Assembly: GCA_964387675.1 (NCBI GenBank)
Contig: CAYLWL010000001.1
Coordinates: 144,874-208,873 of the forward strand
Source: an uncultured Candidatus Saccharibacteria bacterium
GTDB lineage: Bacteria; Patescibacteriota; Minisyncoccia; UBA6257; 2-01-FULL-56-20
Direction: 5' to 3'
Length of the DNA: 64,000 nucleotides
Below, in pieces: positions 12,001 through 18,000 of this stretch; the first letter of the stretch is position 1, and each line of letters begins with the position of its first letter. The position numbers were made by a program.

Positions 12001-15000
12001 CGAAATTTCCGTGCGTACAATCGGTAACTCCCGCCATTGATAGAGTTTTCTTCCACTTTAAATATCTCAAGGCCGTTTTTTTCGAAAAGATACTTCAGAG
12101 ATGGGTATGAGTAGAATTCCAGATGCTCGTGGCAAATATTTCCGAGGTCGTTCTTCTCGATCATGGGTTTGAGGGTCATAAGCTGTGCCACAAAGATGCC
12201 GTCCTTCGCCATCACGCGCTCCGCATCGCGGACAAACTGGTTTGGATCCTCCATGTCGTAGAACATTCCGATCGCCGTGACGATTTTCGCCGGAGGCAGT
12301 TTGAGTTTTTTATACGCTTCGGCGCTCCAGAACTCGTGAATAATATGATCAGCGCGCTTCTTCAATTCCTTTTGCAAATTATTTGCCGGCTCACATCCCA
12401 CGCGAATATATTTCTTTGGATAAAATCCCAAAAGCGTGCCGTCGTTCGCGCCGATGTCGAGGATAACGTCGCCTTTCTTCACTCTGGCCATTTTTTGCGT
12501 TTTTTGGGCGATGTCTTTGAGATCATCTACTATTACTTGCTGAATGCCCGAGCGATACCAGTAGTGGAGTGTGTACATAAACTCTTGTGGCGCGGTATGG
12601 CGCAACTGCAGCAAATTGCACTTTTTGTTCTCGCATAGCAAGAGTTCAAGGGGGGCTTTACCGCCGGACTCGCTACGTTTGCTTACAAAAGTGGAGACAT
12701 ACAGGTTGCCGAGGTTCAAAACCTTTTTCAGTTTATTCTCGCCGCACAGCCGGCAGGTTTTTCGCGTGATGATTTTTGGCATAGATAGGATGTATTATAA
12801 GCGCATTTACTGCGATCATCAAATCAAGCAGGTTTTTGCGCGCAGTATTATTCTATTCTAGTATTCTCAAGAACTTGAGAATAGATATTCCTCGGCTCGT
12901 GAGCTTGTGGCGGATGTTATTTCCGTCGGATCGTTTCAGTAAAAGTCCTGCAACGGCCAGCCTTCTGATATGTTCAGATGCGGTTTTGAAATTGATTTTC
13001 AGCCGTCCTGATATTTCGGCGACAGAAAGCTCGGGCCGTTTCTCGAGTAGCTCCAAAATTTCTATTCTCCGGTGATTCGAAAATCCCCTCACAATTCTTT
13101 CGAGGTGGTGGTAGCTTTTGTTGTTGTCCTTGCCCATGGCGTTGATTGTTATAAGCATAACATTGTTTTATTTTCTATTCTAGTATTCTTGAGAATACTA
13201 GAATAGATTGGTATCCGTAGTATTGATTCTGTCTTGATTCAGATACGATTTACTGGTTAAATTACCATATTATGAAGATAGCCATTGCGTGCTACAACAT
13301 CGACTGGCCTGCCGGCGGACCGCGTTTGCTTTTTTCTTCGGCAAAAGCGCTCGAGAAACTCGGGCACAAGGTGGTGATTTACGCGCCGCAGTTCGAGGGA
13401 AGGTATTTTAAGGAACTGTGGGCCGGGCTCGATATCCGCGTCGTGCCGCCGAAGTATCCTTTCGTTTGGGAGGGACGGCCGAGTTTTTTCAAGTGGATTT
13501 GGAAAAAGTTCAAACAGGAGAGATTGCACCTCGACACGTCCAAACGAATTGCCAAAGCGATGGACAAGGACTTTGATGTGGCGAATCTCCACGACTATGC
13601 CTATCGCATCGCGCCCTTCTACAAAAAGATAAATCCAAAAGCAAAAATTCTTTGGACCTCGAACGATCCGCCGTATACCTATTTGCCGAAGAAAAATCCT
13701 TTGAAGGCGATTTTGAGCAAGCTGTATAATGTGTATCGGAACTGGGCGAGCCGGAGATATTTCAAGTATCTCGACGCGATAGCGGTGCTTGATGAATACA
13801 ACCGCGCGTGGTGCGAGGCGCATGGGCTCAAGGCGAACATCGTTTATCTCGGCGCGGACTTCGAGAAGTTTTATATACCGATAAGGAACTTTGCCGAGAA
13901 GGCGGCTCAAAAAAAAGTTAAACTCTTTGGCCTCGGAGCGCTCAACAAGTACCGCCGTTATGAAGATACGATTATGGCGGTGAAATTTCTGCGTGATTGG
14001 GGATATGACGCGAGCGCGCACATTATTTGCAATGACACATGGAGAGAAACTACTTATCGCGAAGAGCTTATTGGGCTTATCGAAAAAAACAATCTGCGAG
14101 ATTTTGTACGACTTAATTTTAACGGGGCGACGGATGCCGAAATTCATGAAGCGCAGAAAGAAGCAGATGTTTTTGTTTACGCCGTCTATCTCCCGCCGCC
14201 GCGGCATGGATTTGGCTTCAGCATCGCCGTTGTGGAGGTGATGGCGGCCGGGCTTCCGGTTGTGATTTGCAGCACCACGACTTCGAACGAAGTTTTACGG
14301 GACGGAGCAACGGCCTTGTTCTTCGAGCCGCAGTATCCACGGCAGATCGCCGAGAAGATAAAATTATTAGTGGATCACCCCGAAATATACAAAAAAATCG
14401 CCGAAGCCGCCCAGCGCCTCGTTCGCGAAGAACTAACCTGGGAGAACTACGCCAAGAAACTGTTAGCGCTCGTCGAATAACATGCCAAAAATAACAACGT
14501 GCAGAATTTGCGAAAGTCCGAAGTTGAAGCCGTTTTTCGATTTGGGCGAACAGCCGCTGGCGAATTCATTACTTGACGGGAGTCAGGAGTCAGGAGTCAG
14601 GAGTCAGGGTGAAAAGTTTTATCCGCTTTCTTTGACCTGGTGCGAAAATTGCAACTTGGTTCAGCTCGAAGAAACCGTTGATTCGAAAGGATTGTTTTCT
14701 ACGTATGTGTGGGTGACGGGAACGTCGAAGGGCGCGAATGAGTTTTCTCGAAAGTTTTACTCGGAACTCGTGCGGCGTGTCGGCGGCGACAAGAGCGGTT
14801 ACGTGCTCGAAATCGCTTCGAACGACGGCACATTTCTGAAGCAGTTTATAGAAGACGGCTACGAGGTTTTGGGCGTCGATCCGGCGCGGAACATCGCGGA
14901 GATGGCGGAGCGGGCGGGGGTGCCGACGAAATGCGTTTTTTGGGGGAAACCCGCGGCCGAAGATTTGGTAGCCGAAAAAGGCAGGGCGCGGATCGTTTTT

Positions 15001-18000
15001 GCGAGAAATGTTCTGCCCCACGTGGCGAATACGAGGGATTTTGTGGAGGGGCTTGCCCGCGCACTCGCCGAAGACGGCACGCTTGCCATCGAAGCGCATT
15101 ACGCGAAAATTATTCTTGAAGAGCTGCACTACGATTCGATTTATCACGAGCATCTTTGCTATTTCACGCTCAAAACGCTCGAAAAGTTATTAAACGACTT
15201 CGGCCTCTACGTATTTGATATCGCGAAAAGCCCGATTAGCGGCGGTTCGGTTGTCGTATACGCGAGGAAAGAGTCAGGAGTCAGGAGTCAGGAGTCAGGA
15301 ATAAATGAAAGCGAAATGTTGAAAAGTTTTCGCGAAAAAGAAACCGAAGACGGAATAAATAATTTGGAGAGATGGCAAGGTTTCGCGAGGCGGTCATTCG
15401 AGCATCGCGACAAACTTCTCGAAATTCTCGGAGAAGCTAAAAAATTCGGAAGAATAATCGGCTGGGGAGCGTCCGCGCGGAGCTCGACGCTTTTGAATTT
15501 CTGCGGCATTGATTCCAGTATTATTTCTTCCATAATTGACTTGAACCCGTTGAAGCAAGGCAAATTCACTGCTGGCACGCACATTCCGATAGTGAAGCCA
15601 GAAGAAGCGCTCAAAGAAACGCCGGCGCTGGTTTTTATAACTGGCTGGAATTTTGCCGACGAGATTATCGATAGTTTGAGAAATAAATTCGGCTATAAGG
15701 GGCCATGCCTTGTGCCGTTGCCGAAGGAACCGCGCGTAATTAGCCACTAGCCAATAGGGTTTAGGTTTTAGATGCCCCATGACATTTAAAGAGCAAAACA
15801 TAAAAGGCGTTTTTGAGATTCAGCTCGAGCCGAAAGCGGACGAGCGGGGATTTTTTATGCGCACGTATGATAAAAAGATTTTTTCGGAGCACGGATTGCC
15901 GACGGAGTGGGTCCAAGAAAACCACTCGTTTTCTAAAGACCAAGGAACGGTGCGCGGGTTGCACTTCCAATACGCCTCTCACTCGGAGGTAAAGCTTATT
16001 CGCATCGTGGGCGGCGAGGGGTTCTTCGCTTTCGCTGATTTGCGCAGGAAATCGCCCACGTTGGGAAGGTGGGGCAGTGTGATCTTGTCGGGAGAAAAAA
16101 ACAACATGCTTTTTTTGCCCAAAGGAATGGCGGCTGGAGTTTGTACGCTGACGCCCAACTGCCACCTCTTCTATAAGATGGACGAATACTATAATCCCGA
16201 ATCGCAAGGCGTGATTAAATGGAATGATCCCGACTTGGCGATCGACTGGCCCGTAGAAGACCCAGGCAACATTTCAGAAAAAGACAAAACCGCACCGAGC
16301 TTCAAAGAATTCCTGGAAAAAACAGGCGGAGGATTGGAGATTTAGCCGATTAAATCTATTCTGGTATTCTCAAGAATTTAAGAATAGAAAATTTTATGCG
16401 AAAAGCCACGAAAAACAAAAAAGGAAATGCCATTGGGTTCGGCTACTTCGAGCTCGACGAGCTCATCACGCGCATACTGTGCGACACGGCGCCGCGGCAC
16501 AAAGTTGACGCCGCTTACCTTTTCAGCGAAACGGTGGACAATGAGGCCTCGGTGCTCAAGGCCGCAGTTTTTCTCTACGGCTTGGGGCCGGTGAATAAGC
16601 TTGCCGTTGCTCATTTGGGAAGAAAGTTCGGTTACCCCGGTTTCCGTTCTTGGGTTAAAAAGCTTGTTGCGATGGGCGTCCCGCAGAAAGACGTTCGCCT
16701 TATTCCGCTAGCCAAAGATTTTCCTCCTTCAACTGATGCCGAAGCGCTCGGTCTTGTCCGTTATGCTAAGGCGAAGGGCTGGAAAAGTATTTATGTCGTC
16801 GCGCCGCCGCTTCATCAGCTACGGGCTTTTATCACGACCGTGAGCCACGCGATGAAAGAAAAATCAGATGTAAAAGTTTACAGCTTCCCCGGCATCCCGC
16901 AAAGCTGGGAAGAGCACGTCGTTCACTCGCAGGGAATTCAAAAAGGCACGCGGAGCGAGCTTCTCGCGAAAGAGCTGGAGAAAATTGAAAGATATTATCG
17001 GGAAGGAGATCTTGTTTCTGGTGAGGAGGTGCTGGGCTATCTTAATAAGCGAGACAAAGAGAGCTAGAAAATAAATAGGCATAGCTGATTCTATGCCTGC
17101 GGTTTTCCCGCCCACCCCATTCTAATTTCTAATTCAGTTCTATTTTACATTTAGGACAAGTGACGACGAAGTCGCTAAAGACACCGCCGCTGGTGTGACG
17201 ACGAGCATTAGTTTTCAACTTTACTACCTTTTTGCAGTTGGGGCAGTAATCCTTGACTGCGGACCTGGCCTTGCTGACCGCGATGACCTCGTCGAGCTGA
17301 TCGTCGTCGATAAGGGAGTCGAGAACTTGTGTTAAGATTCCCACTGCTTTCATCTTTGCCACTTCTGATCCCTTCTTCACGTCGTCCTCCTGTTATTGTC
17401 ATGTCCCGAAGAACTGAGGATATTGTATGTCCATTACGTTAATAAGTCAATAGGCTGTAGGGTGTTTGACGCCGCACCCGCTTGTTCTAGAATTACGATA
17501 TACTTGGTAGCGAAAACTCGACTGATAATAAATCGCCGTTTTTTCACCCAACTCTGACTCTATCCCCAAATATAGTGCTCGATCTACTACTTGGCAAGGT
17601 CTAAAAACGTTAAAATAAATAGGCGAGTTTCTACTACCGGGTATGGCAAAGAAAAAAAATAATCGTGAAGACAAGTTGGCGCGGATGCTGCAGCGCGAGT
17701 TCGCCGCAATTCACAGGCGTTTTGATGAAACTGTTACCAAGAAAGAACTTGAATCTCTCAGAGAAGAACTTAAAGAAGACGTTGCAACTCTCCGAAGAGA
17801 TATGGAAGTCGGTTTTCTTGGAATTATCCACACGCTTAAAGCCATACAAGAAGAACTCAAAGAGCTAAAAGGTTTAGGTATAGAAGTTGCTTCGCTCAAA
17901 GTTCGCCTCGCTCGCGTGGAACGGAAAGTCGGCATTGGTCGCTAGACGATAAATAAAAACGCGGCGTTCCGATGTCCATCGGAACGCCGCCCGTTTGTCA

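Follow-up and report, generated by a model that had tools for sequence, protein, structure and literature searches.

Non-metal regulators of the ArsR/SmtB family (HlyU, NolR, PagR, SdpR, BigR/SqrR) are winged-helix proteins of about 95 amino acids (aa), alpha1 to alpha5, with '12-2-12'-type inverted-repeat operators at their own promoters, hence autoregulation is expected of them. We analyzed a gene of this type, together with three copies of a palindrome (S1 to S3) that lie in and around it, in a 64,000-nt stretch of DNA from an uncultured Candidatus Saccharibacteria bacterium (assembly GCA_964387675.1, contig CAYLWL010000001.1, positions 144,874 to 208,873), hereafter the window. Comparable arrangements are known from other systems. 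In Tus-TerB of Escherichia coli and RTP-Ter of Bacillus subtilis, a small DNA-binding protein is encoded beside its own site, and the site overlaps and autoregulates the promoter of that protein. In these terminator systems a genome has about ten sites, of which some are intragenic, and RTP is a winged-helix dimer of which two bind a site of approximately 30 bp. The parS sites of ParB-parS systems have copies in coding regions, including that of B. subtilis spo0J/parB itself, and the archaeal AspA is an ArsR-like winged helix that binds a palindrome upstream of its own operon. Rickettsia palindromic elements (100-150 bp, tens of copies per genome) are inserted in-frame into unrelated housekeeping proteins, consistently using the single open frame, and in REP/RAYT REPtrons two repeat copies flank the gene of a Y1/HUH transposase. 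The C-protein/C-box units of restriction-modification systems combine a small helix-turn-helix (HTH) protein with a four-repeat symmetric operator upstream of its own leaderless gene, again with autoregulation (PMC2632904).

The locus in the window shares features with all of these. As in the non-metal ArsR/SmtB regulators, a small winged-helix protein is accompanied by an inverted repeat at its own promoter. In contrast to them, the protein here has no sensing residues of any described type and falls below the NCBIfam family cutoff, while its site is a 14-2-14 palindrome of four hexamers that is dispersed, also inside other genes, and one copy of which is the gene's own last ten codons. Ter sites are asymmetric and polar, whereas the sites here are palindromic and several occur within a few kb of the gene. 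Like parS, the palindrome is conserved phylum-wide with copies in coding regions, including the gene of its presumed binding protein, but neither a ParA nor another partner NTPase adjoins this gene as in ParB-parS and AspA, and its neighbors are heterogeneous housekeeping genes. The in-frame copies recall Rickettsia palindromic elements and the flanking pair recalls REPtrons; however, the element here is only 30-32 bp long and of low copy number, the flanked gene encodes a winged-helix protein, and, unlike in both of these families, the core sequence is conserved across the phylum. C proteins have an Xre-type HTH and thus another fold, no restriction-modification system is linked to the gene here, and C-boxes are neither dispersed nor embedded in coding sequence, unlike this palindrome.

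Based on these comparisons and on the results below, we read the three sites as copies of a conserved 30-bp, four-hexamer palindrome that is most likely the cognate site of the adjacent winged-helix protein. The protein would repress its own gene through S2, S1 and S3 would be further sites, and the protein would act as a general, lineage-wide factor. We assign this reading, which derives from sequence comparison, a probability of roughly 0.55. In Patescibacteria (the candidate phyla radiation), genomes are tiny, regulators are very few and genetics is lacking, so that a phylum-wide conserved pair of protein and site offers a rare handle on how their DNA is controlled or organized.

Each of the three sites is 32 nt long: S1 at 12853-12884 (CTATTCTAGTATTCTCAAGAACTTGAGAATAG), S2 at 13175-13206 (CTATTCTAGTATTCTTGAGAATACTAGAATAG) and S3 at 16356-16387 (CTATTCTGGTATTCTCAAGAATTTAAGAATAG). 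S2 has the layout TATTCT-NN-TATTCT-NN-AGAATA-NN-AGAATA. In S1 and in S3, an imperfect copy, the third hexamer is degenerate, giving TATTCT-NN-TATTCT-NN-AGAAnn-NN-AGAATA. Each half-site is in turn a tandem pair of hexamers, and the whole site consists of four hexamers with an 8-nt period. The sites were first reported in a preliminary description of the window, and their coordinates and common half-sites held up: the 15-nt half-site has 7 matches in the window with up to 3 mismatches, against 0.89 expected, and none of 100 shuffles reached 7. The two-hexamer pattern TATTCTNNTATTCT occurs 8 times in the window with up to 1 mismatch, against 0.26 expected, and the full palindrome occurs 3 times in the 64 kb. 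The perfect symmetry given for S2 (15+2+15) was also borne out and extends to 16+2+16 nt (13174-13207).

The placement of the sites agreed only in part with that description. S2 does sit in the promoter region of the regulator, between it and a divergent GT4 glycosyltransferase gene, and is a putative autoregulatory operator. S1 had been taken for the upstream operator of a C-methyltransferase/AEC transporter operon; instead, it lies wholly within the regulator ORF (open reading frame), on the minus strand, and its center is some 80 nt upstream of the methyltransferase promoter. S3 occupies a 50-nt intergenic spacer, starting 10 nt after the stop codon of an RmlC-like gene (15779-16345) and ending 8 nt before the ATG of ORF 16396-17067. 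The latter had been called a DUF218 gene but has no Pfam match; the sole DUF218 match, a weak one that misses the curated cutoff (E=0.0075), belongs to another ORF (18001-18696, minus strand).

Read on the minus strand, S3 would encode SILKFLRIPE* and is identical to S1 at 28 of 32 nt, so that it resembles a gene-end copy. A decayed second regulator gene can be ruled out as its source, as the match is limited to the last 11 codons, with none upstream of them. A lone half-site (AGAATTTTAGAATAG, 40066-40080), without a partner arm, abuts or overlaps the stop codon of a GT2 gene (39132-40067). We also considered whether S2 could be an assembly artefact. Seven runs gave independent Logan assemblies that match the window at 100% identity; five of these break at 13203, inside S2, as would a k-mer graph at a 34-nt perfect palindrome, and two bridge S2 with identical sequence, which rules an artefact out.

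Homologues of the regulator number at least 716, of which the best 120 share 69-100% identity with it, mostly have 90-98 aa and come from metagenome-assembled genomes of Patescibacteria/Parcubacteria. We took 80 loci from species-representative genomes, with proteins approximately 63-81% identical and with gene calls that are crude ORF picks, and assessed 77 orthologues. A four-hexamer scan with up to 4 mismatches across 733 kb of these loci returned 197 sites, compared with 0-3 in reversed or locally shuffled controls. Of these, 77 are gene ends, 73 lie directly upstream of the gene and 47 are neither. The consensus of the 30-bp element is yTATTCy-nn-TrTTCT-yr-AGAAyA-nn-rGAATAr. The extra sites thin out with distance from the gene: their density is 1.46 per 10 kb in the nearest 500 nt but 0.19 per 10 kb at 4-5 kb, and the background at 3-5 kb is 0.2-0.3 per 10 kb. 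Protein and palindrome thus travel together across Patescibacteria. Full-text searches of the literature turned up no earlier description of the family or the motif. Some loci (L019, L042, L060/L014, L067/L074, L047/L068) carry two or more paralogous winged-helix genes, sometimes in tandem, each with its own palindromes.

The gene-end copy is written in the coding sequence. In the window, S1 corresponds to codons 92-101 plus the stop codon (TCT ATT CTC AAG TTC TTG AGA ATA CTA GAA TAG, or S-I-L-K-F-L-R-I-L-E-stop), and the end of the gene is a palindrome copy in all 77 orthologues. The encoded tail, ...ILKFLR(I/T)LE, is itself nearly invariant: among 26 homologues, L94, F96, L97, R98, L100 and E101 do not vary, and K95 is kept in at least 90%. 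The constraint reaches beyond the amino acids to synonymous positions. Arg98 is encoded by AGA in 77/77 orthologues, against 107/524 at other conserved Arg positions, and Leu97 by TTR in 77/77, against 187/500 at other conserved Leu positions. Likewise, Leu94 is CTN in all 77, Ile93 is ATT in 65/66 and Glu101 is GAA in 76/77. The third base of the Lys95 codon (AAA or AAG) and its palindromic partner, base 2 of codon 99, covary (odds ratio 9.75, P = 1.2e-4); two control Lys codons in the orthologue set show no such covariation. Even the stop codon takes part: of 154 bases at its last two positions, 105 are complementary to their counterparts in codon 92, compared with 79 ± 4 in shuffles. In seven orthologues, Met replaces Lys95, and the coding palindrome becomes perfect. 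Such constrained C-terminal codons indicate that the 3' end of the gene is a functional nucleic-acid element throughout the family, and not a coincidence of this window. With its last ten codons constrained, as far as synonymous positions and the choice of stop codon, to write the probable binding site of its own product, the gene is a clean natural case of overlapping protein and DNA codes.

The second conserved copy, found just upstream of the gene in 73/77 orthologues, has a regular relation to a likely promoter. TATAAT-like hexamers cluster 14-16 nt after the promoter-proximal GAATA in 34/73 upstream sites when read toward the gene, against 7/73 in the reverse direction. In 20 of these 34 cases, the arm sequence TTrGAA lies 16-18 nt from the -10 element, and the first in-frame start codon follows the -10 by 6-10 nt in 18/33. 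From these spacings, we infer that the outer arm TTrGAA doubles as the -35 element of a leaderless or near-leaderless promoter. An arm would usually serve as the -35 of the regulator's own promoter, which is the classic position for autoregulation. We had also considered the arm as a -10 element, but the A at position 2 is G in about one third of arms, which rules this out as a general role.

The corresponding promoter in the window was assigned by analogy with the orthologues and was not reported by a consensus scan. By eye, there is a weak candidate on the minus strand at 13148-13177, with -35 TAGAAA (13177-13172), an 18-nt spacer and -10 TATAAC (13153-13148). This -35 overlaps the last 3 nt of S2, and the -10 ends 10 nt before the ATG of Met8. 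The regulator ORF itself (12853-13158, minus strand) has 101 aa, and its start may be Met8 (ATG at 13137-13135), since most orthologues are 90-98 aa long; the closest homologue, on the other hand, shares the N-terminus ML.I..AM, which leaves some probability to the longer 101-aa form. Two outward-facing promoters flank this region. A strong sigma-70-like promoter (TTGATG-17-TATAAT, 10/12 matches; 12794-12822, minus strand) serves the C-methyltransferase gene at 11577-12782, with S1 lying 30 nt upstream of it and not overlapping. A weak one for the GT4 gene, TTGATT-17-TTAAAT by eye, lies about 26 nt downstream of S2.

The protein's profile and predicted fold place it, as the preliminary description had proposed, as an ArsR/SmtB-like winged-helix protein. 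It matches the Pfam model HTH_5 (ArsR) at 31.3 bits against a cutoff of 22, and also matches HTH_24 and MarR models. A family profile search retrieved HlyU (1.7e-8), a mycobacterial ArsR-like protein, AspA, CadC and CzrA. In the AF2 model (pLDDT 79), four helices (residues 16-26, 29-40, 46-53 and 57-69) precede two strands (73-77 and 82-86) and a fifth helix (88-100), which gives an alpha1-alpha2-alpha3-alpha4-beta1-beta2-alpha5 winged-helix topology. Foldseek matched this model to HlyU, CadC, CzrA, SmtB and NolR with TM scores of 0.67-0.74, and AspA was also among the PDB fold matches. The recognition helix is nearly invariant across homologues, and the three invariant His residues (29, 63 and 84) lie in alpha2, the recognition helix and the wing.

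By contrast, the idea that this regulator senses metal or redox state was not upheld. The 101 residues include no cysteine. Inspection of the two regions where metal ligands would be expected was negative: alpha3 reads ELSVAEI where metal sensors carry ELCVCDL, so the thiolate site of alpha3/alpha3N, formed in sensors by the CxC of that motif plus an N-terminal Cys, is absent. Alpha5 (RGISILKFLRILE) has no His, Asp or Cys and hence no alpha5 metal site, which in sensors is of the type Asp/His-x-His ... His-x2-His/Glu and spans the dimer interface. The NCBIfam HTH_metalloreg model scored 45.7 bits, below its cutoff of 55. On the missing Cys and alpha5 ligands, we rejected a metal or redox sensor.

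The two arms of the palindrome evolve together. Double-sided changes numbered 189, against 68.9 ± 6.0 in shuffles (0/500), and 92.5% of arm cells were paired, compared with 42-48% in slid registers. The sites are largely symmetric, with perfect arms in 37/73 upstream sites. Within a genome, the gene-end and upstream sites are more alike than between genomes (27.18/32 vs 25.03 ± 0.19, 2000 permutations), a likeness that extends to the stop-codon base. Still, two perfect palindromes of one genome can differ at variable positions (e.g. in L077), which implies that protein specificity alone does not account for arm symmetry, and that hairpin-templated correction or a structural requirement has a part in it. 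The cores ATTC/TTCT/AGAA/GAAT are invariant phylum-wide even where arm complementarity fails, as fits sequence-specific recognition by a protein.

Strong covariation could also mean that the palindromes act in transcripts, as RNA hairpins for termination, processing or stability. Two further observations point that way: many copies directly follow stop codons, and S2 folds stably (-11.8 kcal/mol as DNA, z = -8.7). However, S1 and S3 form only weak hairpins (z ~ -2.7) and yet keep their hexamer cores, and specific bases, not pairing alone, stay the same phylum-wide. Among the arm mismatches, pairs that would be G:U-compatible on the sense strand are not in excess (TG+GT 23 vs AC+CA 26). A search at the sites for terminators and U-tracts gave no call and no U-tract, and an Rfam search of the sites gave no match at E<=1. 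Furthermore, given a leaderless start downstream of the site, the upstream copy would be absent from the regulator mRNA. The lack of wobble bias and of Rfam matches, together with the weak folds and kept cores of S1 and S3, favors a DNA site read by a protein. We consider RNA action highly improbable as the main role, and we ruled out a terminator or a known RNA family.

The regulator-centered loci had suggested that sites are confined to the surroundings of the regulator. This was overturned by a site-first scan of metagenome contigs for perfect copies, in which the regulator gene was not required. It gave at least 120 matching stretches, and 80 loci with 85 exact sites were analyzed. Most copies lie at a distance from any regulator gene. 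Among these 85, only 28 are linked to a regulator: 22 are adjacent to it (17 upstream and 5 gene-end), and for 6 the locus contains a homologue at another place, at distances of 3 to 5,306 nt. From these contigs, rather than from closed genomes, we extrapolate to between a few and about ten copies in a genome. No exact palindrome match was found in 2.9 million viral contigs, which rules out a phage-borne element.

A number of the dispersed copies are embedded in other genes. We checked 10 ORFs that host metagenomic copies, and all 10 are real genes with Pfam support (PMT-type and GT4 glycosyltransferases, Mur ligase, TsaD, TrmD, PTAC and MPG). All 10 copies are in the one open frame (phase 0) and encode YSN(V/I)LKN(I/N)RI. 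Seven more in-frame intragenic copies in the genome loci bring the total to 17, all in phase 0, with the pattern YS(N)(V/I)L(K)N(I)(R)I. The element thus has one frame that reads YSNVLKNIRI and another that reads as the tail ILKFLRILE-stop of its presumed binding protein. With the same 30-mer in-frame in TrmD, TsaD, Mur ligase and glycosyltransferases, essential genes carry the element.

In orthologous pairs of intragenic sites, the copies lie at the same residue, with compensatory changes in both arms. L129 and L167, for example, have TCTAATG...CATTAGA and TCTCATG...CATGAGA, respectively, so that Asn to His and Ile to Met changed together. Compensatory changes in two arms that alter two residues at once indicate that DNA-level selection or templated repair of the palindrome overrides choice at the protein level. 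Presence of the element in a given gene can also vary. Among the 120 best Patescibacteria homologues of TrmD (63-79% identical to the query), 12 have a strict YSNVLKNIRI-type motif, about 20 more have decayed versions (by eye), and the remainder lack it; all copies are in one hypervariable loop. As a separate observation, this loop, after QAEPVIRAIEKA, also carries recurrent peptides that differ by lineage (KKLKTKNYK/KKLQTTNYK, KTLHATRYT and SRLRGNDKKG; P0121-P0240), which suggests further families of small in-frame repeats in Patescibacteria genes.

Some loci show rearrangements at the sites. L023 has a gene that L050 lacks, with a palindrome on either side of it; one of these two copies matches the gene-end site in reverse complement (31/32 nt). 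L080 has a 1.75-kb insertion directly after the gene-end site. In L012, a palindrome with approximately 36 nt of downstream promoter/leader and the first codons of the gene at 3782-4870 is duplicated 1.7 kb upstream (1965-2110 and 3715-3800), with a different palindrome copy and another gene between the duplicates. To judge from its sequence, the L012 case is a footprint of local duplication or insertion at sites.

In the mechanism that we propose, the regulator would bind S2, probably as two dimers, and would then occlude the -35 region of its own near-leaderless promoter, resulting in autorepression of the kind seen elsewhere in the ArsR family. The copy within the gene (S1) and the one in an intergenic spacer (S3) would be further binding sites and could act as auxiliary operators or as transcriptional roadblocks or insulators for the flanking sugar-pathway genes. 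The low-copy dispersal of the element, at gene 3' ends and in-frame in housekeeping genes, is what leads us to a general, lineage-wide site-binding factor and not a metal-responsive glycan regulator.

Several results do not sit easily with this mechanism. In the window, the -10 and -35 elements fit weakly, and 22 nt separate the end of S2 from the -10, where 14-16 nt is the rule. S1 and S2 are centered about 80 nt upstream of the outward-facing promoters and so cannot occlude them. Upstream and gene-end sites are spaced 272-350 bp apart without helical phasing (Rayleigh P 0.16-0.27), and rigid DNA looping between the two is thus not supported. In the site-first scan, at least 35 of the 85 perfect sites have at least 600 nt on both sides and no regulator homologue, and for 12 of them both sides extend to at least 3 kb. 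Of the 36 distal sites, 14 fall inside ORFs; the rest separate convergent (8), co-directional (13) or divergent (1) genes. A classical operator would not typically be placed in this way, at gene ends and within genes. Finally, arm covariation is found even at positions that differ between sites of one genome, which suggests hairpin or template-switch processes besides protein contacts.

These difficulties leave room for other roles of the same pair. One is that the protein and palindrome are mainly a roadblock or genome-structuring system of the Tus-Ter, RTP-Ter, ParB-parS or AspA-like kind, with gene-end and intragenic sites that stop or organize polymerases or the chromosome and with autoregulation as a secondary effect. 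The overlap of one site with the protein's own promoter and the presence of another inside its own gene are as expected for such a system, as are the apparent low copy number, the clustering of sites around the regulator gene and the appearance of AspA, an ArsR-like centromere-binding protein, among both the sequence and the fold matches. The excess of convergent over divergent placement among distal sites, the intragenic share (14/36) in genes that proved real wherever they were checked, and the L129/L167 sites, kept in place with compensatory arm changes, fit as well. Yet the sites are symmetric, unlike the polar Ter sites, a conserved partner gene, of ParA type or otherwise, is missing beside the regulator, and several sites within 1-5 kb is a denser layout than that of known Ter or parS sites. 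The turn of the cumulative GC skew in the window, at about 50 kb, coincides with three atypical giant genes and thus lends no help. Taken together, we regard a mainly structural role as unlikely. A still less probable account is that the palindrome is primarily a selfish, self-propagating element like Rickettsia palindromic elements or REPs, with the winged-helix gene as its master or as a domesticated copy-bearer, and most copies without host function. It would explain the presence/absence polymorphism among TrmD orthologues within a hypervariable loop, the 17 in-frame copies, the bracketed gene of L023/L050, the L080 insertion and the L012 duplication, and the greater likeness of sites within a genome. 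It is difficult to reconcile with a very low copy number and a core conserved phylum-wide, unlike typical MITE (miniature inverted-repeat transposable element) or REP families, with the lack of an associated transposase among the neighbors and of any match in the viral contigs, with the maintenance of orthologous copies through compensatory changes, and with the precise, recurrent -35/-10 geometry at the regulator promoter, which indicates function.

The model of the preliminary description, a metal- or redox-sensing ArsR/SmtB repressor that controls a surface-glycan island through three operators, is largely refuted, and we give it very little credence. In its favor are the ArsR-type fold and the surroundings of the regulator in the window, a sugar-nucleotide and glycosyltransferase island in which all three sites lie among sugar-nucleotide, glycosyltransferase and C-methyltransferase genes. 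Against it stand the missing ligands and the subthreshold metalloregulator score given above, the coding nature of S1, the fact that neither S1 nor S2 overlaps the outward-facing promoters, and the gene neighborhoods of the related loci. Across the latter, the gene downstream of the regulator is TP_methylase/RsmI-like in 15/60 loci but a group-1 glycosyltransferase in just 2/60; others encode a Mur ligase, SpoU, PCMT, DHH, a tRNA synthetase and similar proteins. The upstream gene is a Mur ligase in 10/58 loci, and the divergent arrangement of the window recurs in 7/73. Neighbors of the extra sites (41 genes) are heterogeneous, one of them an IS200-like gene. These profiles of 60, 58 and 41 flanking genes rule out a glycan-specific regulon; a dedicated link to glycan genes is not supported. 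The ParA family is not among the top families of the 60 downstream and 58 upstream genes, so an adjacent partner NTPase, as in ParB-parS, is not seen. The outcome corrects an attractive but wrong annotation of this protein as a metal-sensing regulator of glycan genes.

Our preferred reading, a cognate palindrome with autorepression through S2, may itself be part of something larger. It is possible, although we advance it only tentatively, that this phylum-wide, low-copy 30-bp element spreads locally and into coding sequence, and that the protein-element pair is an undescribed genome-level system (a roadblock or insulator, a Ter- or parS-like organizer, or a protein-assisted mobile binding site) of which autoregulation is only the most visible face.

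The window contains several other features. Three paralogous sugar C-methyltransferase-type genes (11577-12782, 14482-15750 and 21966-23120; Methyltransf_13/14/23) lie in one island, with the regulator between two of them. At the island's edge (~3235-3710, from L001 9494-9969), a small gene pair with weak matches to YoeB_toxin and DUF2683 is likely a toxin-antitoxin module. At 49885-60264, three tandem ORFs of approximately 1100-1180 aa have a common internal repeat (53836, 57092) and a higher GC content, with a change in the sign of the GC skew at about 50 kb; a G/C-rich 15-4-15 hairpin (53406-53439) directly follows the first of them. Three more palindromes lie near ORF starts or in spacers. 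A GC-rich, perfect 14-2-14 palindrome at 17961-17990 (GCGGCGTTCCGATG..CATCGGAACGCCGC) is found just before ORF 17995-18543. A perfect 12+12 palindrome at 40137-40160 (GGTACTATGATA/TATCATAGTACC) precedes ORF 40172-41227 by 11 nt and follows the lone half-site at 40066-40080 by about 57 nt. The last, at 43853-43892, has arms of 20+20 nt that are 95% complementary (CTTTTCCATTATAGCATAAT / ATTATGCTATAATAGAAAAG) and is located between ORF 42526-43836 and ORF 44498-47161; its sequence is unrelated to the TATTCT element, and it may be another operator.

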